Assembly: GCA_937912005.1 (NCBI GenBank)
Contig: CALDOX010000001.1
Location: forward strand, 85,978 to 149,977
Direction: 5' to 3'
From: an uncultured Alphaproteobacteria bacterium
GTDB lineage: Bacteria > Pseudomonadota > Alphaproteobacteria > CAAGCB01 > CAG-977
Length of the DNA: 64,000 nt
Shown: positions 3,220 to 63,705 of the stretch, in pieces
Layout: each line of letters begins with the position of its first letter
Position numbering within the stretch: the first letter of the stretch is position 1
Program-made: the position numbers and the translations under genes
The notes under the pieces: model-generated
The model's input: only the letters and a program-made list of their open reading frames with translations
What the model was told of the DNA's origin: nothing
The model's database searches: none

Positions 3220-5081
3220 TGACGGATACGTTTGATGTGATTGTTGTCGGCGGCGGACACGCCGGTTGTGAAGCGGCGGCGGCGGCGGCGCGTATGGGCG
3301 CGAAAACGGCTTTGGTAACGCATAAGATTTCCACGCTGGGGGAAATGTCGTGCAATCCGGCGATCGGCGGATTGGGAAAAGGCCATCTGGTGCGTGAAAT
3401 CGACGCTTTGGACGGTGTGATGGGACGTGTCGCCGACAAAGCCGGAATCCAATTCCGTATGTTGAACAGTTCTAAAGGTCCGGCCGTTCAGGGATTGCGC
3501 ACGCAGGCGGACAGAAAGCTTTACCGGCAAGCCATGCAGGCGGAACTGCTGAATTATGAAAACCTGACCGTCATCGAAGCCGCCGTCGAAGGCCTGATGT
3601 ACCGCGAAAATCCGGCACAAGTAACAGGCATTGTTACATCGGATGGAACGCAATACGCGGCGGGGGCTGTCGTCCTGACGGCCGGAACGTTTCTGCACGG
3701 ACTGATGCACGTCGGGGAAACAAAGACGGTCGGCGGCCGTGTCGGCGAAATTTCCTGTGAACATTTGTCCGATTTTCTGTTGCGTCTGGGATTGCGTGTC
3801 GGCCGGTTGAAAACGGGAACTCCGGCAAGATTGGACGGCAAAACGATCAATTATGATATATTACAGCGGCAGGAAGGGGACGCCGATCCCGAACCGTTCT
3901 CTTTTCTGGACGATAAAATCACGACGCCGCAGATCGCTTGCTATATCACGGCAACAAATGCGAAAACGCATGAAATCATTCGCGCCAATATGCACCGCGC
4001 GCCTCTGTTTTCGGGACAAATCAAAGGAGTCGGCCCGCGTTACTGCCCCAGTATCGAAGACAAACTGGTCAAATTCGCCGACAGGGATTCCCATCACGTT
4101 TTTCTGGAACCGGAAGGGTTGGACGACGATACGGTTTATCCGAACGGCATTTCCACCTCTTTGCCCGCCGATGTGCAGGACGCGATGATCCATTCGATCA
4201 AAGGCTTGGAAAACGTGCGGATCATTCGCCCGGGATATGCGATTGAGTATGACTATGTCGATCCTTTGGAAATGCGGACGACTTTGGAAACGAAAAAAGT
4301 ATCCGGCTTGTTCATCGCAGGGCAGCTGAACGGCACGACCGGATACGAGGAAGCCGCCGCTCTGGGGCTTTTGGCGGGCATTAATGCCGCTTTGAAGGCA
4401 GGCGGTTCGGACAGGGAATTTACGCTTGACCGCGCGGACGCTTATTTGGGCGTGATGATCGATGATCTGACGACCAAAGGTGTGGATGAACCGTATCGCA
4501 TGTTCACATCGCGCGCGGAATACAGGCTTCTGTTGCGTTCGGACAACGCGGATATGCGCCTGACGCCGAAAGGCATTGATATCGGCTGTGTCGGCGCAAA
4601 ACATCGGAAGGCTTTTGAAGAAAAAGCCGAAGCGTTGAAAATTGCGCGTGAAAAACTGAACGGTATCGGCGGGACTCCGCGTGAATTGGAAAAGCTCGGT
4701 TTTGAAGTGAATAAAGACGGTTCTCACCGTAACGGTTTTGATTTGCTGGCTTACGAACAAATCGACTGGGAAAAGCTGTCCGCCGTCTGGCCGGAATTGA
4801 AAGACACGCGCGCCGATGTCGTCGAACAGCTGGAAATCGAAGCAAGATACCGCGGTTATCTGCAACGGCAGGAATCGGATATTGCCGCATTCCGTAAAGA
4901 TGAGGCGTTGAAGATTCCCAAAGACATCGATTATAAAAAAATCGGCGGTTTATCGAACGAAGTGATTATGAAGCTGTCCAAAGTTCGCCCCGAAACACTG
5001 GGCGCGGCATCTCGTATTTCAGGCATTACGCCCGCGGCGGTAACGGCGGTTCTGGGCTATATCAAATCAGCTAAAGGTTAA
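3216..5081 (+). CDS. mnmG: tRNA uridine 5-carboxymethylaminomethyl modification enzyme MnmG (GidA)
   Basis: FAD-binding [15 protein letters not shown]-terminus. Length and conserved blocks match GidA. The ATG at 3216 overlaps the mnmE TGA as ATGA; the ORF track lists a TTG at 3204. Confidence 0.95.
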
Positions 5082-6334
5082 ACGTTTTTATCGCACATAA
5101 AACGTTTGATCTGGGCGTTGATAAAATTTCTCAGCCATTCCAGATCTTCTTTGGACAATCCGCGCCCGATATGAGTCGTTTGCCCGTCTGCGCCGATAAC
5201 AAGCGTATATTTTGAATCATAGCTGTTATGGACAACATAGATATATTCCAACTGTTCCGGTTTAATCAAAAAGCCGATTGACGGAAAGAAAAGCCATTTT
5301 GATTTGATGCGGATTCCCTGAGAAGAAACTATAATTCTTTTGCGTCTGAAAAAAAGAGCCAGCGGCACGGCAATAAACAATATCAATCCTGCGAACAATA
5401 AAGGCAAATATGATAACGGAAGTCTGAAAACAAAACTGAAAAAGACGATTGCAAAAAAGGTTGAAAAGCACAATATTCCGGAAAAAACAGAAAAAGCGCT
5501 GTCACGAATTTGCGGATCAATTTGGCAGTTTTCCGAATCTTCTATAATTTTAAAAGACTGCGGAATTTTATAAAGATTATGGTCGGATACTTCGATTTTC
5601 CCTTCTGAAATTAAATCGGGCAAGGCTTTCTGGATATTCTGTAATTCAATTTCTATAATACCGTCCGCCGTATTAAAAATAGCCGGCATTTCAAGCTGTC
5701 TTACCAATTCTTCCCATTTTTGAGAAATGTTTTCGCCATTTTTGGTAATGTAAAGCGGAATGGTTTTTGTTTCGTTGGGATGTTGTAAATCAATGATATG
5801 CTGCGTAAAAGAAGTTAGCCCCAGAACGTTAACGACGCGCGTACGATAACGCACGCCGATATATTCGTTCAGAGAATCGGCCATTCTTTTACTGTGTTCA
5901 AACGGTTTTTGGATAACAACCGCGGCAAACTTGTGACCGATAAAAAAATCACGGCCGTAAGAAAGCAGCATTAATCGGGTTACAATTAAAAAAAGTCCTA
6001 ATGCAACGAACAGCCAGGCAGCCGAAAAAGAACTGGCGACGTTGGAAGAGTCCGAAGATTCTATTTTGGAAAACAAGGAATTGTCAACCGTACCGAAATC
6101 GCCCAAAAAGCCCAATGCGATCAGAATGATTCCCAACAGAATACCAAGATAAATGTTTCGTTTGGATACACGATCTTTTGCCTGAGTCGGACGGCGGGAA
6201 ACATCAAATTCCAAAAAAGACGACAGCGGGCGCAATCGTCTGGTTTCAATGGCTTCTTCATTATCAGACAGGCTTTCCAGCTCGTCTAAATTTGTGTTTT
6301 CCAGTAATTCGTCCTGAACCATTCCGTTCCTCAA
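5078..6334 (-). CDS. Hypothetical 4-TM membrane protein, 418 aa, in a low-GC stretch
   Basis: Long ORF, AT-rich. Two pairs of hydrophobic helices separated by a domain of about 180 aa. No recognisable motifs. Confidence 0.5.
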
Positions 6335-6436: not shown

Positions 6437-8968
6437 ATGGAAACAGCTCTTACTTCGACGACAGGCCTTATTCCGATGATGCTCAGTTTGGTGGGCGTAT
6501 TGGTCGCGCTGCAATATTTAAAAGGGATGTCCGATTTTTCCGACGCCATTCGATTTATTTTTTGGGGATTTGTTTTTGTCTTTTTATCAAAAATACTGAT
6601 TTTCTGTTCCCGTTCCATAGGGGTGGAATATTATTATTTTGCATCATTAATGCTGCACTTGTTGTCGGCTGTTTTGTTGACTGCGGGAGCTGCAAGCATC
6701 AGAGGAAGCAAGTTTTTCAGCCGAACGGTTGTTATTTTTTTAAGTTTGCTTGCCGGAGTGTGGAGCTGGTATGTCGTTATTATTACGCGTGACGGCAGTT
6801 CTCTGACGTTTTCTTTAGCCGCTTCAGTCGTGGGATATGCTTTTTTATCAGCTTCTTTATGGCGCAAAAAGATGCTGCGCAACTCTATCGGTTTTGTTAT
6901 TACAGGCTGGTTCTGCGTTTTTTTGGCGTTGTATAATTTATTGATATTGATGTCATGGGGACAAAGTCTTGTATCTCCGGCCTTTGAAACATTTTTGTAT
7001 ATCGCGATTATGTGCGGTTGGATTTTGATTTCCAACAATTTGATGGCGCATCAATTTGATACGCTGGAGCAGGAAGCGGAAGAAAATAAAGAGCGTCTGC
7101 GTTTGATGATTCAAATGTCGCCTTTCCCGATTATCATTTCCAGATTGAAAGACGATCAACTGATGATGATTAATAATAAAGCGGGCGCTTTATTCGGATT
7201 GGATGTCAAGCATCCGGGCAACTTTAAAACAGTGGATTATTTTGCGGAGCCTGAAAAAAGAACGGAATTACTGGCTAAATTGGAAAAACATCCGGTAGTT
7301 GACGATTTCGAATTTTTGGTTAAACCGCGCAAAGGCGAACCGTTCTGGCTTTTGCTGTCAGCGCGGGTGATCGACTTTGAATATGAAATCGCTTTGTATA
7401 TGGCGTTTCAGGATATTACAGATCGTAAGAAGAAAGAATTGCAGCTGTTTGATCAGGCAACACGCGATCCTTTGACAAAATGTTATAACCGTCGCCAATT
7501 TGACGAATTGGCAAAGAAGGAAATTCAACGTTCCCGTCGTTATCATCATCCGTTCTGTCTGTTTATGATCGACGCCGACCACTTTAAAAATGTCAATGAT
7601 ACGCACGGCCATGCGGTCGGCGACTTGGTATTGCAGGCTTTGGCCGATTGTTGCCGCAGAACGCTGCGCGAATCTGATATTGTGGCGCGTTTCGGCGGGG
7701 AAGAGTTTGTTATTCTGCTGCCTGAGTCAACCATTGAAAACGCTTTTCGTGTGGCGGAACGCCTGAGAATCAAAATTTCTAAACTGGTTGTGAAAAACGA
7801 ACAGGATCAAAACGTTCAGTTTACGGTCAGTATCGGCTTGGTTTCTTCAACGGTGACGGATGATATTCCGGAAATGTTGAAAATGGCGGACGAGTCTTTG
7901 TATGTTGCAAAAGAAAACGGCAGAAATCAGGTCGTCGTTTATGAAGCAACGGGCCCGAATAAAGATTTGCCGCGTCCGGAAGGCGAAGATATCGAAAAAG
8001 TCAAAGCCGAACCGTTGTATTACTTTAAACCTTCCTCTGCGCCGGTTATTATGAACAGAACCGATGAAGAACCTGTCGAAACCGGTGTCGTCGGGTTAAG
8101 CGGAGATGCGCCGGCAGAAGAAATGTATCTTGACGATGACGAGGAAGAAAATGAAACTTCAAAAGGCGTTTCTTTGAATTCTTTGTATGATGAGGAAGAG
8201 GATTCGGGATTTATACCGACATCTAAACCGGTAGCTCCGCCGATTGCCGTAGCTCCGCCCGTATTTGATGAGGAAGCTGAGCTGCCGCAGGATATTGATA
8301 CGGGTTTTTCGGATGAAGAGCTGCAGGGATTGCCTGTGGAAAATGAAGCATTATCGTTTGAAGAAAACCAATATTCCGCAGATGAAGATATATTGCCGCC
8401 GGAAGAAGAATTGCCGGTTGAAGAAGCGTCGTCTGAATTTGATCAGACAGAACAAGGTGCGGAAGAAAACGATTTGCCGTTGGAAGACGAACCGCTTCCG
8501 CCGGAAGAGAACGTGTCGGCGGCAGATTTACCGTTGCCGGAAGAAGATAATGAATTGCCGCTTGATGACGAAGAAACATTTTCCGGTCAATCGGTTTCCG
8601 CGTCCGATAATGAGTTTTTGGAACCGGTACCGCCGGCGGTTGCCGAATATACGGAATCTGAAGAGGATATCCCGCCGCTTTCGATTGATGATAATAAAGA
8701 AGAATTATCTGAATCGGAAACAGAAAATTTTGCTCCTCCGTCTCCGACTGTTTCACCTGTTCCGGTAAAAATGCCGCAGCCTCCTCAGCCGCCGCCGGTA
8801 GGTATTCCTATGGCAAAAGCACCGATAATTAAAATGCCGGTTTTGGCTAAAATGCCGCCGGGAATGATTAAGGTTCCTAAAATGCCCGGTGTTGTGCGGG
8901 TTAAGATTCCCAAATCGATACACCAGGGAGAAGCGCCTGTTCCTCCCAAGCCGCCCGGTCAGCAATAA
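6437..8968 (+). CDS. Membrane-anchored PAS-GGDEF diguanylate cyclase with a long acidic, repeat-rich C-terminal tail
   Basis: N-terminal multi-TM region, PAS-like segment, then a GGDEF domain with an intact RFGGEEF active-site motif and RxxD-like context. The final ~330 aa are D/E/P-rich with LP..E repeats and end in xKMP repeats. Confidence 0.8.
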   Translation: METALTSTTGLIPMMLSLVGVLVALQYLKGMSDFSDAIRFIFWGFVFVFLSKILIFCSRSIGVEYYYFASLMLHLLSAVLLTAGAASIRGSKFFSRTVVIFLSLLAGVWSWYVVIITRDGSSLTFSLAASVVGYAFLSASLWRKKMLRNSIGFVITGWFCVFLALYNLLILMSWGQSLVSPAFETFLYIAIMCGWILISNNLMAHQFDTLEQEAEENKERLRLMIQMSPFPIIISRLKDDQLMMINNKAGALFGLDVKHPGNFKTVDYFAEPEKRTELLAKLEKHPVVDDFEFLVKPRKGEPFWLLLSARVIDFEYEIALYMAFQDITDRKKKELQLFDQATRDPLTKCYNRRQFDELAKKEIQRSRRYHHPFCLFMIDADHFKNVNDTHGHAVGDLVLQALADCCRRTLRESDIVARFGGEEFVILLPESTIENAFRVAERLRIKISKLVVKNEQDQNVQFTVSIGLVSSTVTDDIPEMLKMADESLYVAKENGRNQVVVYEATGPNKDLPRPEGEDIEKVKAEPLYYFKPSSAPVIMNRTDEEPVETGVVGLSGDAPAEEMYLDDDEEENETSKGVSLNSLYDEEEDSGFIPTSKPVAPPIAVAPPVFDEEAELPQDIDTGFSDEELQGLPVENEALSFEENQYSADEDILPPEEELPVEEASSEFDQTEQGAEENDLPLEDEPLPPEENVSAADLPLPEEDNELPLDDEETFSGQSVSASDNEFLEPVPPAVAEYTESEEDIPPLSIDDNKEELSESETENFAPPSPTVSPVPVKMPQPPQPPPVGIPMAKAPIIKMPVLAKMPPGMIKVPKMPGVVRVKIPKSIHQGEAPVPPKPPGQQ

Positions 8969-9003
8969 AAAAACGCCGCAATGGTTCTTGCGGCGTTTTT
9001 TTA
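8966..9003. terminator. Bidirectional rho-independent terminator between the GGDEF gene and gmk
   Basis: AACGCCGCA-loop-TGCGGCGTT hairpin flanked by an A-run and a T-run. Confidence 0.6.
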
Positions 9004-28662: not shown

Positions 28663-31248
28663 TCAAACTTTTTGCTCTTTGAGCCATAAAAGTAAGTTTT
28701 TTAACACAAGCTTTTGCTGTGCCGTAATGAATGATTTCATAAAGGAAAAATCAATTTCATTTGAAGCTGTAACAGGAAGATGCACTGTTAGTTTTGCCGC
28801 TGTTTTTCGATTAAATTTATTAGCGTAATCAAAACGTCCTGCCGCACTTTTTTTAAACAATGACACAAAATATAATAAAGATTTTTCACTCCATTTATCT
28901 GAATGAAGCGGATATAAACCTTGAACATGCGGATATCCTATAAAATCAGTTGGTTGATAAAAAATACCGTCTGATGTTGTTGTATCGCTGTATGTGATTA
29001 TATTCCCTTTTTCTGTCGGAGAAAGACTACTATAACCAATAACACCGTTGTTTAAACTTGAATTGGAAATGACGGGTGTTTTTCCGTACTCTTTAAATAA
29101 GTAAAAATTAGTTAGTTTATATGCTTTCGTAGGATGTATATTAAATAAATCGCCTATTTTAAATTCTTTGAATAATGGAGATTCTTTCTTAAAATCACTA
29201 TGTGCATCTTTATTATTTGATAGCTTTTCTGAAGTAGTTGTTTTAAGAAAGCTTTCAAATAATCCTTCTTCCTTTAAAATTGTTGATACTTTCCACGATA
29301 AATAATCCGCTACCGTTTTTCTGAAATCCGCTTCGGTTGGGATGGTATCGATTTTTTTATGTTGCGCATATGTCCAATCATTTCCGTTTAAGGTGATTGT
29401 GTCTTTAATGACACAGTTGTCAAAATAGTGCGTTGTTTGTTTACGGTTCAAAACGATATCGACGATTTCCCGATAACGGCCGCGGGCGTTGCCGGTATCT
29501 TTCAAATTAACGTCTGCGCTTGCTTTTTTCTTGTTTTGCCTTGTATAGCCGTCGTTTGAAAAATCAATAAAAGTGACCAAACCGTCAACATTATGCGGTT
29601 TTCCGACGTCAAAAACATAAATTGCCGTCTGAACCCCCGCTTTGCCGCAGAAAATATCGCTCATATGAATTGACGCGATAAGAGAGTTGTTTTTCAGAAT
29701 CTCTTTTGTGTATGGCAGACCGTTTCCGCTTCCCGCATTTTCCTGTATCAGAATCGCCGCTCGTCCGTGTGTCATTTTTCCTAACGCCTTTTCGACGAAG
29801 ACAAAACCTTTCCCGTCAGCGGAATAGGGAGGATTTAACAGGAATACATCGGCGGGAAACGGTTCGTCTTTTTTAGTCCCCTGTTCATATTTGCCGTTAA
29901 AATCTTTCAGAGAATCTTTGTGCAGAATATTGCACGAACCGTCTCCCATCAGAATCATGTTTAAAACCGCTAGCATATAAATATCGGCACGCACCTCAAC
30001 ACCCAGAAGTTGGAAATATTTAATGCACGCGATTTTTTCCTGTAGTTTTTGAGGACTGTTGATACTTTTTTCGGCATCGCCGATCATTTGCTTCATCGCT
30101 GAAATCAGAAAGCCTGCACTTCCCGTCGCATAATTCCAGACATAACTGTCTTTGTTGACTTGACACAATTTAGCCATCAATTCGCAAACATAACGCGGCG
30201 TTAAAACAACATCGTTTTTCTCGCCGTCCGGAATATCAACCCATTCGTTTAAAACGTTAAAAAGTCTGCCCGTAAAATCCAGATGACGCGCCGAAGTGAA
30301 AATCGGCATAATATCGTTTTTAATAACGGTATAGACTGTTTTGATCGCACTTTCCCCGTTTATCGGCATATAAATTCGGGAATAAATAAAAACCTGCGAT
30401 AAATCGGAAACAATCAAATCCTTTTTCTCTTTAGGAAGATTTTTTTCACTTAAAAAATCGGCAATTTTATTGATGACAAGCTTGCCATCATTGGAATAAT
30501 TTCCCGTTTCGCCTTTTAAATCCGTTATTTCCAACGGCGAAACCCGATTCTCAACCCCCAATGCAGCCATAATCAATCCCGCAACCAGTTGGACACGAGA
30601 ACCGACGGAGATTTTTAATTCATCATGCATTTTTTGGTTTAACGCCTTTAATTTGATTTCGATCTGATTTTCGAAATCTTTGGCACGGCTTTCTTTTTCC
30701 TCGTCCGTTAAAGAAAGCACATCAACTTTTTTGATAAAATTTTCAAAATTGTTTTGATTCAAAAAGCTCAAGCCACTGTAATCATCTACTTTTTTAGGAA
30801 TACAAAAGTTATCTGCGGAAACATAATAAACGCCTAATTCCGTTTTAATCCCGCCGGCATCTTCATATCCGTTAAAACCAATCGCGATGACTTCTTTATA
30901 GGATTGCGTGTGTTTTATAATCGCGTCTGCATAATGTAGGGCTCCATTGACAGCGTACTTTTGAATGTTTGAAGATTTGGAATTGTCGATTTCGCCTGTT
31001 TCGGTTGTTTTAATCAAATATCCTTGTTTCCCCTTAACTTCAATCATAACGGGAATTTTTCGATTTGTTTTTGTCGTCAAAAACAACTTGATATCAGGAT
31101 AATTATTTCCTTTTCCCCCGTTTTTGGACGGAGCCTTTTTTAAAGCCTCATCAATTTCGGGATTGATACTTTCTGTTTTTGTATAGGTTTTGCAGTCTTT
31201 CAGTTGCGCTTTGGCGATGTCTTCGATTTTTTCTTCAATGCTTTTCAT
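28663..31248 (-). CDS. Single-polypeptide Type IIG-like restriction-modification enzyme: N-terminal PD-(D/E)xK nuclease-like region, gamma-class N6-adenine DNA methyltransferase, C-terminal HsdS-like target recognition domain
   Basis: YPDIKLF...MIEVKGK (PD...ExK) near the N-terminus. AdoMet motif WNYATGSAGFL followed about 80 aa later by the catalytic NPPY. C-terminal FKIGDLF...GKTPVISNS... resembles an HsdS TRD. 861 aa and very AT-rich. Confidence 0.55.
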   Translation of the reverse strand: MKSIEEKIEDIAKAQLKDCKTYTKTESINPEIDEALKKAPSKNGGKGNNYPDIKLFLTTKTNRKIPVMIEVKGKQGYLIKTTETGEIDNSKSSNIQKYAVNGALHYADAIIKHTQSYKEVIAIGFNGYEDAGGIKTELGVYYVSADNFCIPKKVDDYSGLSFLNQNNFENFIKKVDVLSLTDEEKESRAKDFENQIEIKLKALNQKMHDELKISVGSRVQLVAGLIMAALGVENRVSPLEITDLKGETGNYSNDGKLVINKIADFLSEKNLPKEKKDLIVSDLSQVFIYSRIYMPINGESAIKTVYTVIKNDIMPIFTSARHLDFTGRLFNVLNEWVDIPDGEKNDVVLTPRYVCELMAKLCQVNKDSYVWNYATGSAGFLISAMKQMIGDAEKSINSPQKLQEKIACIKYFQLLGVEVRADIYMLAVLNMILMGDGSCNILHKDSLKDFNGKYEQGTKKDEPFPADVFLLNPPYSADGKGFVFVEKALGKMTHGRAAILIQENAGSGNGLPYTKEILKNNSLIASIHMSDIFCGKAGVQTAIYVFDVGKPHNVDGLVTFIDFSNDGYTRQNKKKASADVNLKDTGNARGRYREIVDIVLNRKQTTHYFDNCVIKDTITLNGNDWTYAQHKKIDTIPTEADFRKTVADYLSWKVSTILKEEGLFESFLKTTTSEKLSNNKDAHSDFKKESPLFKEFKIGDLFNIHPTKAYKLTNFYLFKEYGKTPVISNSSLNNGVIGYSSLSPTEKGNIITYSDTTTSDGIFYQPTDFIGYPHVQGLYPLHSDKWSEKSLLYFVSLFKKSAAGRFDYANKFNRKTAAKLTVHLPVTASNEIDFSFMKSFITAQQKLVLKNLLLWLKEQKV

Positions 31249-33291: not shown

Positions 33292-33606
33292 AATCATTCT
33301 CCAAAAACAAAACGTTCTTTTTTAATATTTTTTTTCGCTGAGGCTGTCAACACGAATAAAAATCAAAAAAAATATACTTTGAAGTAGGTGTGGTATAAGA
33401 ACAATCGTTGGCGTCAAGGACAAGGCCTGCAGCGGCTGCGCAGACGATACATAAAAACGGTCGCAGCCTGTGAGTTTCTTTATAAAGGAATTAAAAAAAC
33501 GCCCTCTGAATTTCCGGAGAGCGTTTCTGTATTGAAAAAATAAAAATTCAAAGGTAAAAACTTTAAAAACGGTTTTTATTTTTAAAAACGGGAAAAGGGC
33601 TGATTG

Positions 33607-34695
33607 ATGAACTATATCGGAAGCAAAAAAACGTTGATTCCGTTTTTAAAAGAAACAATTTTGAAAATAATTTCGCCGGATTCCCATGTTTTTTGCGATT
33701 TGTTTGCCGGTACGGGAACGGTCGGAAGCTGTTTTAAAAGAGAAGGTTTCAAAGTTATTTCCAACGATTTGCAGTATTATTCTTTCGTTTTAAACAGAAA
33801 CTATGTCGGCAATCATAAGGCGCTGGAATTTAACGGACTGACGGCAGAAATAGAACAGGCGGCAAAAAACGTATCGAACGATCAGATGAGGTTGTTCGGC
33901 GATAAATCGAAAAAAGAGTATGTAATTGAATATCTGAACAATTTAAAGGGCGAGGAAGGTTTCGTATATTCAAATTATACGTTGTCCGGCACAAGAGGGC
34001 AGCAATTTGAAAGAAATTATTATTCCGAAGACAATGCGAAAAAGTGCGATGCCGTTCGGATGAAAATCGAAGAATGGAAAGAAGAAAAGCGAATTACGGA
34101 AGACGAATATTTCTTTCTTTTGGCGTCTTTGCTGGAAGCGATAGACAGTGTGGCGAATACGGCTTCCGTTTACGGCGCTTTTTTGAAAAAGCTGAAAAAC
34201 TCAGCTGCCAGAGCGATGAAAATTGTTCCGGCCGATTTTTCGATTACGGATGAAGAACATTGTGTTTATAACAAAGACGCCAACGAGCTGATCAGGGAAA
34301 TTTCATGCGATATTTTGTATCTTGATCCGCCGTATAACGAGCGTCAGTATTCTGCAAACTATCATATTTTGGAAACGATCGCCAAATATGACGATCCCGT
34401 TATCAAAGGAAAAACAGGTCTGCGCGATTATAAAGACCAAAAATCAAAATACTGCTCAAAAGCCGATGTAAAAAGGGCTTTTGAGGAGCTGATTCAAAAC
34501 GCCAAAGCAAAATATATTTTTTTAAGCTATAACAACGAAGGTTTGTTAAGCATTGATGACGTGAAGGAAATTTTTTCCAGAAAAGGAACTTACGGAACAG
34601 CAACGCAGGCGTATAACCGCTTTAAAGCTGATTCATCCAGAAAATACAGTGCGGATAAAACGGTGGAATATTTACATTACTGCATTTGTAAATAA
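33607..34695 (+). CDS. D12-class (Dam-like, alpha-group) N6-adenine DNA methyltransferase
   Basis: Motif I DLFAGTGTVG precedes the catalytic DPPY. MMNYIGSKK N-terminus typical of Dam-family MTases. 363 aa. Confidence 0.8.
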   Translation: MNYIGSKKTLIPFLKETILKIISPDSHVFCDLFAGTGTVGSCFKREGFKVISNDLQYYSFVLNRNYVGNHKALEFNGLTAEIEQAAKNVSNDQMRLFGDKSKKEYVIEYLNNLKGEEGFVYSNYTLSGTRGQQFERNYYSEDNAKKCDAVRMKIEEWKEEKRITEDEYFFLLASLLEAIDSVANTASVYGAFLKKLKNSAARAMKIVPADFSITDEEHCVYNKDANELIREISCDILYLDPPYNERQYSANYHILETIAKYDDPVIKGKTGLRDYKDQKSKYCSKADVKRAFEELIQNAKAKYIFLSYNNEGLLSIDDVKEIFSRKGTYGTATQAYNRFKADSSRKYSADKTVEYLHYCICK

Positions 34696-35642: not shown

Positions 35643-36284
35643 ATGCGTCGGATTTTGATTTATTCTTTACAGGAAAAACCCAGACAAGCTTTGGCGGGAG
35701 AGATCCGCGCGCTAAATATTGCCGATGAAGTCGATGAAACGGCTTCTTTTGAAGAAATAAAGACGTTGACGGAACAGGAAAGTTTTTCCGCGTTTATCAT
35801 TGACGAAGCGTTGCTGGAACAGATCCGACTGTTGACGGATTTGCTGACAAAAGTTCCTGTTTTTTATTTGGCCGGACAGCCGTTTACGCCGGAAAACGGC
35901 CAATATGTCCAAAAGCCGTTCCGTTTGTCCGTATTTTTGACGGCTCTGATTGCCGCGATAGCTCAATTTGAACAAAGCGATCATGCATGCGTTTTCTTAA
36001 ACGGGTGGAAGTTCAATTTCGCCGGAAAAATTCTGAACCGTGAAAATGAAGAAATTAAGTTGACCGATAAGGAAGCGGCATTGCTGAATTATTTGTATAA
36101 TCAGCCGGAGCCGGTCGATAAGGAAACGCTTCTGCGTGAAATCTGGGGATACGGCGAGGGCATTTCCACGCATACGTTGGAAACTCATATTTATCGTTTG
36201 CGGCAAAAACTGGAAACGACGGGTATTACGTTTTCCGCAGCTAATGGCGAAGGTTATCGATTGGTTTTTGAAGAACCTATTTAA
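35643..36284 (+). CDS. OmpR/PhoB-type winged-helix transcriptional regulator with an atypical receiver-like N-terminus
   Basis: C-terminal trans_reg_C-like LTDKEAALLNYL...THTLETHIYRLRQKL. Start at MRRILIY. Confidence 0.55.
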   Translation: MRRILIYSLQEKPRQALAGEIRALNIADEVDETASFEEIKTLTEQESFSAFIIDEALLEQIRLLTDLLTKVPVFYLAGQPFTPENGQYVQKPFRLSVFLTALIAAIAQFEQSDHACVFLNGWKFNFAGKILNRENEEIKLTDKEAALLNYLYNQPEPVDKETLLREIWGYGEGISTHTLETHIYRLRQKLETTGITFSAANGEGYRLVFEEPI

Positions 36285-38259
36285 TATAATTATCGCGCAT
36301 TTTCCGCAGACGGCGGGCTTTTTCCGTCGGCGTTTCATCCATATCGCGGTCGCGGATGCGGACTTTTAACGCGTCAAAAGCATCGCCGATCGGAATAAAG
36401 CCGTCGCGGCTGTCTATTAAGCTTTTTCCCGCATGAGCCAATCCGATCGCGTTCCCGTTATCATCTACCAGGATACCGCCCAGAGTGACACTTTGTACGT
36501 TTGTGTTTGTTAAAATGTCAACACCGGTATTGCTGAAACGATAACCGGCCACTTTGCCGTGTTCCATCGCTCCTTCATATCCGCCGCGCATCGGCGTGCC
36601 GATCGCGTAGAATTTTTCACCGACGGCCGGCAAATCCAACCGTAGCGGAATGGGCCAGTTATATTCGTCAAATTCGCTGGGCGGCATATACAATAAAGCG
36701 ACGTCTTTGTCTTTGTTGACGCGCAAAACCATAGAAGGCACGATGCGTCCGTCTAAAAATTCGGTTTTGACATATGTCGTTTTCTTGGCAATTTCATAAT
36801 TGGTCAAAACCAAGGAAGGAGAAATAATTAAACCGGATCCGACTTCTTCTTCATTTGTAACGGCAACAACGCTTGAACGAATGCGGTAAATGCGAATTGG
36901 CGACAAATAGCGGAACGGTTTTTGGTTGTCGATTGTAATCCAACCGTCTACGGGTGAAACGGCAAAACCGAACTTATTGTTTTCTTTTTCCAAATCGGAT
37001 GAAAGGGTGAACTCTTCCAAAAACCGGCCCAACGGTACGGTACGCAGAACCTGACCGAAAACTCCTTTGGTTAAAGGCGGCTCTGTTAATAAACGGGCAA
37101 AGATGCCGCTTCCATCGCCTTTATCTCTTAAACCGCGTCCCGCAATGCCTGATCCGACGGAGTCGTCCAAATCTTGTTCTGTTTGTGGTTCTTCCGCTAA
37201 AGGAACACCCGATAACTCTTTGCGCATCGCCTGCAGACGTTCCAGTTCTTCCGGAGTCAGTGCTTCTCCGTCGGCAAAGCGACGCTCCAGCTCCCGCAGT
37301 TCCCGCATATCGCCGTCGCCCTTTTCCATTTCTTCGGTTAAAGAACGGCCGCCCAGATCCATTTTTTCGAGATTGTCCTGCAAATGTTCGCGATCTATAT
37401 AGAATTTCATTCGTTTGCGGCGATAGGAAGACTGCAGTCTTTTATACTTTTTATGTTCATAAACCAAGGCATCAAATTCCGCTTTGGCTTTCCTCAGCTC
37501 TTCAGGATTGGGAACCGTACGCATCGTTTCCAGGAATCCCGGCATGCCGATCAGACGAATCAAAGCGTCCGCAAACGCTTTTTCAATCAGGCGCACTTCG
37601 CCGTCACGAACGGGCGTTTGAATTTCCGCATAACCGCGCGTTGTGTCTTCCCAATACAATTTGCGGTTAAAAGGCGTCATCACGCGCCAAAGCACCTGAA
37701 TTTCCGAAGATCCGCTGCGTAATTGTGAATATGTCCTGGTGCGCCAATCATACTGATCGCAAACGTTGATAAATAAATCTTTGATTTCTGCGGTAATAAC
37801 GTAGCCGGGCAGCAAATCCGGTCTTTCCGCGCTGATTGAATAGGGAAAATAAGGATTGTCTTTGCGGACAATGACGGGAAACAGTTCGTTCAGCTCTTCA
37901 AAGAACACGTTGTCAAATTTTATGTCGCGGCGCATAGCGCGGCCTTCGTTTAAAACGACGTTTTTTTCGGCTCTTTTGCAGCCGAACAATTTGAAATTAT
38001 AACGACCGATATCTTTACCCCATTCTTCCGCCGTTCTGTTGCGGTTGATTTTAAAATCGACGTATTCCAATTTTATCGGAGCCAGTTTCGGATCAAAAGT
38101 AAACAGCCGTTCCGCTAATTCGGTTGCCGCATCACCGTAAACGGGCGTCGCGTGATCACCGTCAATGACGACGGTTGTTTTTTCAATGGCAGAAACGGTT
38201 TCAGGCATCTGACACAGGCAGAAAATCAATGTGAATAAGAAAAAATGTTTCAATTTCAT
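36277..38259 (-). CDS. Secreted protein with a central coiled-coil and a C-terminal trypsin-like serine peptidase-like domain
   Basis: Signal peptide MKLKHFFLFTLIFCLCQMPETVSA. The C-terminal SGLIISPSLVLTNYE ... GGILVDDNGNAIGLAHAG resembles an S1-family fold. Confidence 0.4.
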   Translation of the reverse strand: MKLKHFFLFTLIFCLCQMPETVSAIEKTTVVIDGDHATPVYGDAATELAERLFTFDPKLAPIKLEYVDFKINRNRTAEEWGKDIGRYNFKLFGCKRAEKNVVLNEGRAMRRDIKFDNVFFEELNELFPVIVRKDNPYFPYSISAERPDLLPGYVITAEIKDLFINVCDQYDWRTRTYSQLRSGSSEIQVLWRVMTPFNRKLYWEDTTRGYAEIQTPVRDGEVRLIEKAFADALIRLIGMPGFLETMRTVPNPEELRKAKAEFDALVYEHKKYKRLQSSYRRKRMKFYIDREHLQDNLEKMDLGGRSLTEEMEKGDGDMRELRELERRFADGEALTPEELERLQAMRKELSGVPLAEEPQTEQDLDDSVGSGIAGRGLRDKGDGSGIFARLLTEPPLTKGVFGQVLRTVPLGRFLEEFTLSSDLEKENNKFGFAVSPVDGWITIDNQKPFRYLSPIRIYRIRSSVVAVTNEEEVGSGLIISPSLVLTNYEIAKKTTYVKTEFLDGRIVPSMVLRVNKDKDVALLYMPPSEFDEYNWPIPLRLDLPAVGEKFYAIGTPMRGGYEGAMEHGKVAGYRFSNTGVDILTNTNVQSVTLGGILVDDNGNAIGLAHAGKSLIDSRDGFIPIGDAFDALKVRIRDRDMDETPTEKARRLRKMRDNYIK

Positions 38260-62865: not shown

Positions 62866-63705
62866 ATGAGTGATGAGTCATTCATTACGTTTGAAAACGA
62901 AAAGCAAATAAAAGAGTCTTTGGAACGTTGGCAGGCTTCCGCGCTGGTGGATGCCGTTAAAGATCTGAAAGATTGCCAAAAACTGCGTCAAGCGGTAAAG
63001 GCTTTGGAAAAAACAAAATCTTCCGAGCTGTTAAAAGACAAGGATAATCCCGAAAAATGGTTGGAATTGTATCGGGCGCATCAGGTGCTGGACCAAAAAG
63101 CGATGGCTATGGGTGAAAAAGAGCAGCCATGGACGCACGAACAGTTTTTGTTTGACGCTTTATTATCCGCTGTCGTGCGCGGCGTGATGCATGAAAATCT
63201 GGATATAGATCCAGAGGAAGACGGACTGGATTTAAATGCGATCCTGGCGGAAATGGATGATCCGGCGGATTTTTTTGATGAGGAAATCGAAAAGGACGAA
63301 GTTTTTCAGGAAGCTTTGGAATCCGCTTCCGCCAACGATATGTTCAAAGTGCATTCCCGTCTGGCGCATATTTTAACCAAATGCAACAATGCATATACTT
63401 TAAAAAGATCGGATTATGTGGTTGAAACGGTCAAAATGCCGATGATGGGATTTCTGGGGAAAAGTCTTTTCCCGGTTTTCGGCAATGCGGTTAAAAAGGT
63501 GCAGTCCAAAACACCTAGCGGTAAAGGCCGCGGCGATTGGATTGATACGCCGACCTGTTTTATATTGGCCCGCACAAATGATTTGTTGCAGGAAGCCAAA
63601 GGCCGTCTGTCGGGATATGCCGAAAAAAAAGAGGAAGCGGAAGCCGCTCGTATCAGAAGAAAGAAAATCTGGTATAAAATAAAAAGAGTTTTCCGTAAAA
63701 GGTAA
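62866..63705 (+). CDS. Hypothetical acidic protein, 279 aa
   Basis: ORF with a basic C-terminal tail. No motifs. Confidence 0.45.
   Translation: MSDESFITFENEKQIKESLERWQASALVDAVKDLKDCQKLRQAVKALEKTKSSELLKDKDNPEKWLELYRAHQVLDQKAMAMGEKEQPWTHEQFLFDALLSAVVRGVMHENLDIDPEEDGLDLNAILAEMDDPADFFDEEIEKDEVFQEALESASANDMFKVHSRLAHILTKCNNAYTLKRSDYVVETVKMPMMGFLGKSLFPVFGNAVKKVQSKTPSGKGRGDWIDTPTCFILARTNDLLQEAKGRLSGYAEKKEEAEAARIRRKKIWYKIKRVFRKR

Follow-up and report, generated by a model that had tools for sequence, protein, structure and literature searches.

A membrane-embedded diguanylate cyclase of gut and rumen Alphaproteobacteria carries a conserved, disordered C-terminal extension that may tether it to a partner

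We analyzed a diguanylate cyclase gene with a long acidic C-terminal tail that lies in a 64,000-nucleotide stretch of DNA (the window) from an uncultured Alphaproteobacteria bacterium (contig CALDOX010000001.1 of assembly GCA_937912005.1). The gene is found in housekeeping surroundings, flanked by mnmE-mnmG and gmk-yicC, and its product comprises a membrane domain, a PAS domain, a GGDEF domain, and the tail. The features of the locus are collected in Table 1. An AlphaFold2 (AF2) model of the cyclase, based on a 75-sequence alignment, gave predicted local distance difference test (pLDDT) scores of >90 from residue ~10 to ~533. Seven transmembrane helices were modelled in the N-terminal part at residues 8-28, 32-57, 63-89, 96-117, 120-143, 151-171, and 181-226 (pLDDT >90), and the K/R-rich loops at residues 89-96 and 143-151, read from the sequence, agree with the positive-inside rule. 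The seven helices together with these loops place the catalytic domain and the tail in the cytoplasm, the predicted topology being an outside N-terminus and an inside C-terminus with the PAS domain, the GGDEF domain, and the tail all cytoplasmic. No family in Pfam or NCBIfam matched the membrane domain (residues 1-210).

The PAS domain was recognized by the NCBIfam S-box model TIGR00229 (with 32.9 bits, above the cut-off of 22.9) and, under the gathering score, by Pfam PAS_9 (E=8.2e-5). The GGDEF domain matched PF00990 over profile positions 1-161 of 161 (E=1.2e-44, 152.4 bits against a cut-off of 23.8) and NCBIfam TIGR00254 (E=3.9e-53, 179.6 bits against a cut-off of 37.4). The GGEEF motif occupies residues 420-424, and an RxxD inhibitory site (I-site), present in many but not all GGDEF cyclases, reads RESD at residues 411-414, five residues before it; R411, D414, and G420-F424 were invariant in the 75-sequence alignment. 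The top fold matches of the model in the PDB were solved PAS-GGDEF and GGDEF cyclases, and isolated GGDEF structures such as 3ign, 4zvf, and 4zmm gave target-normalised TM-scores of 0.90-0.92 with root-mean-square deviations of 1.5-2.1. The identification of a diguanylate cyclase with an intact GGEEF domain, made in the first-pass annotation from the nucleotide letters and their translations, was thus confirmed by Pfam, NCBIfam, and fold matches alike. Its domains and predicted fold mark the enzyme as a diguanylate cyclase of ordinary type, whose active-site motif is intact and for which synthesis of cyclic di-GMP (c-di-GMP) is predicted. The product of the gene would be a catalytically competent and product-inhibitable cyclase, embedded in the membrane.

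Table 1. Features of the cyclase locus, in window coordinates, with the basis of each assignment (aa, amino acids; ORF, open reading frame; dN/dS, ratio of nonsynonymous to synonymous substitution rates)
Feature	Position	Strand	Basis
Divergent 414-aa membrane protein, conserved neighbour, candidate partner	5078..6322	-	start M5 follows orthologues
Complete cyclase gene, 843 aa, seven transmembrane helices-PAS-GGDEF plus tail	6437..8968	+	single ORF; Pfam, NCBIfam; full-length orthologues 42-98% identity
N-terminal membrane domain, aa 1-210, seven transmembrane helices	6437..7066	+	AF2, positive-inside loops
PAS domain, aa 219-329	7091..7423	+	PAS_9, TIGR00229, fold matches
GGDEF catalytic domain, aa 341-498	7457..7930	+	Pfam, NCBIfam, AF2 fold matches
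Proximal conserved tail, aa 505-590	7949..8206	+	conservation, pLDDT, alignment with short-tailed relatives
Acidic proline-rich linker, aa 591-770, degenerate E-L-P-x-E-E units	8207..8746	+	pLDDT, indels, dN/dS
Overlapping open frames 8223-8756 (-) and 8265-8768 (+)	8223..8768	.	not genes
Cationic, aliphatic, proline-punctuated C-terminal motif, aa 771-832, four xKMP	8747..8932	+	alignment, dN/dS
Hairpin, 16-bp stem, A-tract and T-tract flanks	8966..9003	.	consensus match

The tail (residues 505-843, 339 residues) contains 56 E and 26 D (82 D+E), 55 P, and 19 K+R, which gives each chain a net charge near -60. Its ten LP dipeptides were matched or exceeded in 33 of 20,000 tail shuffles, with an enrichment of z=4.7 in the linker (residues 591-770) alone. 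The four xKMP units (VKMP at residues 777-780, IKMP at 798-801, AKMP at 804-807, and PKMP at 814-817) were not equalled in number in any of the 20,000 shuffles. Both the D/E/P-rich, LP-containing composition and the four basic terminal repeats noticed at first sight therefore held up. The charges are strongly segregated, the net charge per 20 residues being -4 to -8 over residues 545-764 and +1 to +5 from residue 765 onward. Residues 537-770 have 75 D+E against 4 K+R, and residues 771-843 have 10 K+R against 1 D+E. Over residues 537-843, the charged fraction was 0.29, the net charge per residue -0.20, and the proline content 16%. No similar tail was found elsewhere in the 64-kb window, where the next D/E/P-richest open reading frames (62866-63705 and 36277-38259) were ordinary. 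Thirteen Pro-Pro dipeptides, in PPP, PPG, and PPE contexts, fall in residues 505-843 (7949-8965) and none in residues 1-504. PPP, PPG, and PPE stretches are known in general to require elongation factor P for efficient translation.

At the DNA level, a repeated unit matching the protein repeats had been reported. This was correct insofar as the octamer AAAATGCC occurs in frame at 8768, 8831, 8849, and 8879, four times within 119 bp, the two strands of the whole window having 12 copies in all. The reported match did not extend to a tandem repeat, as Tandem Repeats Finder detected none in 7900-9000 or elsewhere within the cyclase gene. A 29-nucleotide unit (TTGCCG..GAAGA) is present in nine copies, which are merely 62-72% identical to each other. 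The lack of a tandem repeat and this low identity indicate that the repeats of the source genome are old and degenerate, and a recent repeat expansion, one origin put forward earlier for the tail, was not borne out for the window sequence. The term "repeat tail" here means degenerate, interspersed units. The long antisense and alternate-frame open reading frames at 8223-8756 (-) and 8265-8768 (+) arise because the composition of the tail depletes stop codons, which are scarce in four of the five other frames. All orthologue tails show such long open stretches, with frame and length differing, and the frames are artefacts as the first-pass annotation had assumed.

The tail can be divided into three zones (Table 1), whose statistics were drawn from 45 aligned orthologue clusters, with conservation expressed as the majority-residue fraction. 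The proximal zone (residues 505-590) carries the motifs GEDIEK..EPLYYFKP, TGVVGLSG, LDDDEE, and GVSLNSLYDEEE, the orthologue consensus being GEDIxK..EPLYYFKP, TGVVGLSG, LDDDEE, and GVSLxSLYDEEE. The majority fraction was 0.65 over residues 505-545, the dN/dS of the zone was 0.13-0.28, and residues 505-533 were modelled packed on the folded body (pLDDT >90). The zone aligns with the whole 40-90-residue tail of 35-45%-identical relatives through HPIF, EISLLDG, PLDDD, and the acidic end. Residues 505-590 are the ancestral C-terminus of the cyclase family, and the extension was added beyond this older end. Because residues 505-533 are modelled as folded and residues 505-590 are conserved and ancestral, the truly unusual portion of the tail is residues ~591-843 only, and not the whole tail of about 330 residues as initially thought. 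The short-tailed relatives (P0093-P0119, P0095/P0104, and P0077-P0081) finish with different conserved peptides: EISLLDG and then [YF]PILG[IV]D[ED]EDL[K], or D[ED]DIF[SA]. The occurrence of such clade-specific C-terminal peptides suggests that they are a general feature of the cyclase family.

Beyond the packed segment, residues 537-843 were predicted to be disordered (pLDDT <50), with no contact with the body in the AF2 monomer. The acidic linker (residues 591-770) had a majority fraction of 0.37 with many indels, compared with 0.91 for the GGDEF domain, and a dN/dS of 0.22-0.57, compared with 0.01-0.04. The terminal basic motif showed a dN/dS of 0.07-0.16 at a dS of around 1-2, where synonymous sites are near saturation. 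Its best-conserved core, KMPPGMIKVPKMPGVVRVKIPK, at residues 801-830 (8837-8926), reached a majority fraction of 0.77, and the orthologue alignment of the terminal motif had invariant K/P columns. In most orthologues, residues ~795-832 read ..MKK[IL]PIKMPxGMVK[IV]PKMPGVVRVKIPKALHQ... The xKMP units are part of an orthologue-conserved motif of ~45 residues and not a free repeat array. On the substitution pattern, the core KMPGVVRVKIPK of residues 771-832 is under strong purifying selection.

About 68 protein clusters with the full architecture, 42-98% identical, were found in uncultured gut and rumen Alphaproteobacteria, with source records that include "Acetobacter sp. CAG:977", UMGS, UBA, and rumen and horse-faeces metagenome-assembled genomes. 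The tail was present in frame in 45 of the 45 aligned clusters, from many independent samples and hosts, with lengths of 225-498 residues, of which 21-31% were D+E and 9-22% P. These tailed orthologues are common in the clade, and their annotations read merely "diguanylate cyclase" or "hypothetical", none giving a known function. In a sister species (P0009-P0035), the bodies are 100% identical over the first 505 residues, and the proteins differ by whole 18-residue units (LPEEYPPVEAELPSEEEA), giving lengths of 748, 765/766, 784, 820, and 837/838 residues. A 54-bp in-frame tandem array (4.3 copies, 92% identity) was found in one such tail (L007, 3784-4015). Because the sister-species proteins differ by whole units and this array is present, the linker, as far as the compared sequences tell, grows and shrinks through repeat gain and loss. 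All of these sequences come from short-read assembly, and in one scaffold (L048) a 100-N gap coincides with the repeat; part of the copy-number differences may thus be an assembly artefact or short-read collapse rather than strain variation.

The fast, indel-rich evolution of the linker, the tandem repeats of the sister species, and the difficulty that assemblies have with the region, as seen from the 100-N gap, would all be expected if the tail were a functionless by-product, either tolerated slippage-prone low-complexity sequence or an artefact of assembly or annotation. We consider this extremely improbable. The tail is in frame in every aligned orthologue cluster, the linker as well as the terminal motif has a dN/dS below 1 (0.07-0.16 for the latter), and the window copy has no tandem repeat able to mislead an assembler. 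Moreover, a protein 98% identical and of the same 843 residues was recovered from a separate sample, and the gene ends at a hairpin, probably an intrinsic terminator acting in both directions, that it shares with the convergent guanylate kinase gene gmk. The in-frame conservation in all orthologues and the selection pattern largely exclude the junk or artefact reading, including the assembly error that had been named as a caveat at the outset. The tail is a real, conserved, selected, lineage-specific disordered extension of one gut and rumen clade.

The terminal motif was next considered as a possible portable element. When 1.84 billion representative proteins were searched exhaustively with a profile of the terminal 62 residues, 8 matches had E<=1e-3, every one the cyclase or a fragment of it, and a word-index search of 5.8 billion proteins with the same segment gave five short fragments and nothing else. 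A portable motif was ruled out, as matches were confined to the cyclase family in both searches. The short stand-alone matches were contig-end pieces, one 100-N-gapped scaffold, and one likely chimera. The last is a 96-residue protein on a 762-bp contig (P0121), in which a response-regulator-like N-terminus (MESQMRIIICDDNIEFAKELSLLL...) is joined directly to the cyclase terminal motif; this contig is probably a short chimera. Within the libraries searched, the terminal motif is restricted to one orthologous cyclase family. Searches of the PDB found no sequence relative of the tail, the RlmG match of the profile (E=2) being due to chance, and the tail lies outside all models of Pfam and NCBIfam. 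The tail is thus foreign to canonical diguanylate cyclases, as proposed in the first-pass annotation. A literature search on disordered or proline-rich diguanylate cyclase tails and on the host lineage returned nothing relevant or comparable.

We tentatively favor, at somewhat less than even likelihood, the explanation that the tail is a disordered spacer plus a docking peptide, which would tether the cyclase to a partner and so place or cluster c-di-GMP synthesis. According to this tether model, one gut and rumen clade of Alphaproteobacteria would have extended the cytoplasmic C-terminus of the cyclase by a two-part disordered module. Residues ~591-770, in which composition is kept and sequence and length are not, would act as a highly extended, self-repelling acidic spacer. 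Residues ~795-832, with the core PKMPGVVRVKIPK, would be a short cationic aliphatic docking element under strong purifying selection. The docking peptide would probably order only upon partner binding, likely as an extended or beta-strand segment. The segment PGVVRVKIP has a 9-residue hydrophobic moment of 0.75-0.85 at 180 degrees and 0.16-0.22 at 100 degrees, and such strand amphipathicity would suit beta-strand addition to a partner. Spacer and peptide together would hold the cyclase to the partner at a distance, giving local c-di-GMP signalling. We infer that the terminal peptide binds a partner and that its effect is localisation or clustering rather than direct catalytic regulation. The role in localisation or scaffold binding put forward in the first-pass annotation is plausible.

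Several observations weigh against the tether model. The strand amphipathicity of the 17-residue core was unremarkable (equalled or exceeded in 2126 of 10,000 shuffles), so that the strand moment is descriptive only. The AF2 monomer showed no intramolecular docking of the terminal peptide. No c-di-GMP effector or scaffold candidate besides the divergent neighbour was found among ~30 genes scanned at 1.9-40.6 kb. The more distant clades keep only the cationic and aliphatic character at the end (KKIIKKII, KKVVIKKVV), not the sequence, and such ends would suit a specific protein groove no better than a non-specific electrostatic target, for instance a membrane or polyanion. Finally, the host is uncultured.

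Direct physical coupling of individual cyclases to their targets ("local c-di-GMP signalling") is an established idea. The window protein has the same ordinary GGDEF core with I-site as canonical membrane PAS-GGDEF cyclases; the known couplings use folded domains or helices, whereas the window cyclase has a disordered tail. In the searched libraries and literature, we found no described cyclase with a disordered acidic tail of ~250-340 residues and a conserved cationic end. The closest likeness, by analogy and not homology, is to FtsZ, whose folded domain leads into a disordered linker with a conserved peptide at the C-terminal end, the latter binding membrane-anchoring proteins (bioRxiv 10.1101/171280; 10.1101/632075). 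As in the C-terminal linker (CTL) of FtsZ and its conserved C-terminal peptide (CTC), a disordered segment of variable length and sequence precedes a short conserved peptide in the cyclase, with pLDDT <50, free length, and kept composition in the linker and a dN/dS of 0.07-0.16 in the peptide. Alphaproteobacterial FtsZ CTLs are also long, acidic, and proline-rich. The two peptides are, however, without sequence similarity, the CTC being a short helix or acidic-hydrophobic and the cyclase end cationic and proline-punctuated. FtsZ is soluble and needs its peptide to reach the membrane, whereas the cyclase is already membrane-embedded and its partner is putative.

Another likeness is to HubP/FimV, membrane-anchored hubs with an extensive acidic repeat-rich cytoplasmic region and a conserved C-terminal element that recruit clients (PMC12918733). 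The cyclase is likewise membrane-anchored with acidic cytoplasmic repeats and a conserved C-terminal element. It differs in that neither the LysM nor the FimV TPR domain was found by Pfam or NCBIfam; the acidic region sits on an enzyme, and no homology was detected. A third comparison is with the spacer of the membrane-anchored TonB, in which (Glu-Pro)n is followed by (Lys-Pro)n and which is thought to form an extended spacer. The cyclase tail too has an acidic and then a basic proline-rich segment. The TonB spacer measures tens of residues, is periplasmic, and consists of strict dipeptide repeats with a folded C-terminal domain after them, whereas the cyclase tail runs ~250 residues past the ancestral end, is cytoplasmic by the predicted topology, and is irregular with nothing folded after it.

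The terminal motif in the window has a proline at each 3-4 residues, no aromatic residue, and a helical moment of 0.09 over residues 797-826. An amphipathic helix of the MinD/FtsA type was ruled out for it on the frequent prolines and this low moment. A C-terminal sorting signal was likewise ruled out, since no hydrophobic stretch was found in residues 771-843 and no sorting-signal model of NCBIfam (PEP-CTERM, GlyGly-CTERM, or LPXTG type) matched. Among distant relatives, P0056 and P0075 gave helical moments of 0.68 and 0.41 and would qualify as amphipathic helices. P0075 (L050, 5001-8084), which is 37% identical to the window protein, has an acidic tail of ~520 residues with long YDELPAEE-type repeats that terminates in KKVVIKKVVKKVVKVIKKP. 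Its architecture indicates that acidic ELP repeats joined to a cationic aliphatic end form a plan that reaches beyond the exact motif. The P0075 terminus KKVVIKKVVKKVVKVIKKPVPKP differs from the window motif and is cationic and helix-compatible.

These ends raise the alternative that the cationic aliphatic terminus is a non-specific electrostatic anchor or sticker, which would bind an anionic surface and no specific protein. The surface might be the inner leaflet of the cytoplasmic membrane, where a second attachment would make a loop or brush of the acidic chain. It might alternatively be provided by acidic tails on adjacent molecules, and block-polyampholyte chains would then cause the cyclase to cluster in two dimensions or to form condensates. 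This alternative would account for the retention of only cationic and aliphatic character across clades, as Phi-K-Phi-P units in the window clade, KKIIKKII-type ends in P0056 and P0065, and KKVVIKKVVKKVVKVIKK in P0075, the helical moments of P0075 and P0056 being 0.41-0.68. It would also agree with the strong segregation of charge between residues 537-770 (acidic) and 771-843 (basic) and with an acidic block kept in composition, not sequence. We nevertheless regard it as rather unlikely. Within the window clade, the core PKMPGVVRVKIPK is nearly invariant despite saturated synonymous sites, a constraint that exceeds the one usual for membrane-binding polybasic segments. The proline-rich motif, with its helical moment of 0.09 and no aromatic residue, is not an amphipathic helix of the MinD/FtsA type, and seven transmembrane helices already hold the cyclase in the membrane. 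The ratio of negative to positive charges, about 8:1, is far from the balance that favors self-coacervation.

A further alternative is that the tail acts in cis, with the acidic chain and the basic end controlling dimerisation or activity of the GGDEF domain. Repulsion between tails might separate the protomers until cations, polyamines, or a partner neutralise them, or the basic end might fold back on the enzyme. GGDEF cyclases act as dimers, and a net charge of about -60 per tail would make such repulsion plausible. Residues 505-533, conserved family-wide, are packed on the body with pLDDT >90, so the C-terminal region does touch the enzyme. Residues 537-843, in contrast, make no contact with the body in the AF2 model, all with pLDDT <50; a defined fold-back would be unlikely to tolerate the two-fold range of tail length (225-498 residues), and distant relatives work with short tails that have no such module. 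We therefore consider regulation in cis unlikely.

A candidate for the partner of the tether model is the product of the divergent gene (Table 1), the single conserved association in the surroundings. This gene lies beside that of the cyclase in 31 of the 34 alphaproteobacterial loci, among them the loci whose cyclases show only 35-44% identity, and the pairing holds at 24-27% identity of the neighbour and in L050, the locus of P0075. On gene order, the cyclase and the 414-residue neighbour are an uncharacterised conserved two-gene unit. Homologues of the neighbour number only 52, and it matches no family in Pfam or NCBIfam. Its AF2 model (pLDDT 73) consists of a disordered acidic N-terminus, four transmembrane helices, a beta-rich domain, and a C-terminal PH-like domain. 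The fold matches were weak, with EROS at E=2.4e-3 and PTB/PH domains at E=0.07-1, none reaching E<=0.001. An additional acidic peptide, DLDELESLS, is conserved at the N-terminus of the neighbour in the window clade; the neighbour of the short-tailed clade is without a peptide of this type and has a strongly basic central domain. Charge complementarity between the cyclase end and the neighbour N-terminus was suggested by two clades, but the P0075 clade did not conform, and the idea was dropped.

As a specific version of the tether model, the terminal peptide might dock on this neighbour, at its PH-like domain or its acidic N-terminal peptide, to form a two-protein membrane signalling unit. The conservation of the pair in 31 of 34 loci and in L050, with neighbours down to 24-27% identity, would be in keeping with this, as would the PH/PTB-like matches of its C-terminal domain. 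Peptides that are extended or rich in proline are ligands of PTB and PH-superfold domains. The presence of DLDELESLS in the window clade, and its absence together with a basic central domain in the short-tailed clade, points in the same direction. We nonetheless find docking on the neighbour quite improbable. The pairing of the two genes arose before the tail module, the neighbour being present beside short-tailed cyclases as well. P0075 combines an acidic tail and a basic end with a neighbour that has no acidic N-terminal peptide, L025 has the basic motif without an adjacent neighbour gene, and no fold match of the neighbour reached E<=0.001.

The repeat units of the linker were also compared across orthologues. 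LP enrichment ranged from z=-0.4 to 8.9, strong in some orthologues and absent in others. A role of E-L-P-x-E-E as an obligatory multivalent motif was ruled out by the orthologues with z of about 0. Since the enrichment is not universal, E-L-P-x-E-E is a lineage-specific repeat and not a universal requirement, which argues against an indispensable binding site. We give little credence to a bolder form of the tether model, namely that the tail is an undescribed cytoplasmic tether in which E-L-P-x-E-E units form a "ruler" of strain-variable copy number and a family-specific docking peptide couples the enzyme to a target or nucleates clusters. If this were true, changes in repeat number would adjust how far or how strongly c-di-GMP signals locally in gut Alphaproteobacteria.

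How cyclases get specific outputs from one diffusible molecule is a standing question, to which physical coupling is a favored answer. The cyclase described here is a natural example, well sampled across its evolution, of an enzyme that seems to carry its own flexible tether and docking peptide. Across 45 or more orthologue clusters, linker length varies and the terminal motif is fixed, which suits experiments that swap, shorten, or scramble the tail. The hosts are uncultured gut and rumen bacteria, and an effect of the tail on signalling is hypothetical. The protein adds to the few long disordered regions of bacteria in which composition is conserved, sequence is free, and a terminal motif is fixed.

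Other observations were made in the window and in the compared loci. An 861-residue open reading frame at 28663-31248 (-) has both N6_Mtase and Methylase_S (specificity) domains. Near it, at 33604-34695 (+), lies a D12-class adenine methyltransferase, and the interval between them (31.2-33.6 kb) has no open reading frame of >=150 residues. The contig CAVCSV010000008.1 (L014), recorded as Limosilactobacillus gorillae, holds an alphaproteobacterial mnmE-mnmG-membrane protein-cyclase block, and the bin is probably mislabelled or contaminated. In the sister-species locus L007, the spacer between the cyclase gene and gmk has a 36-bp tandem repeat (4809-4930; 3.1-3.4 copies, 82-85% identity), which is absent from the window.

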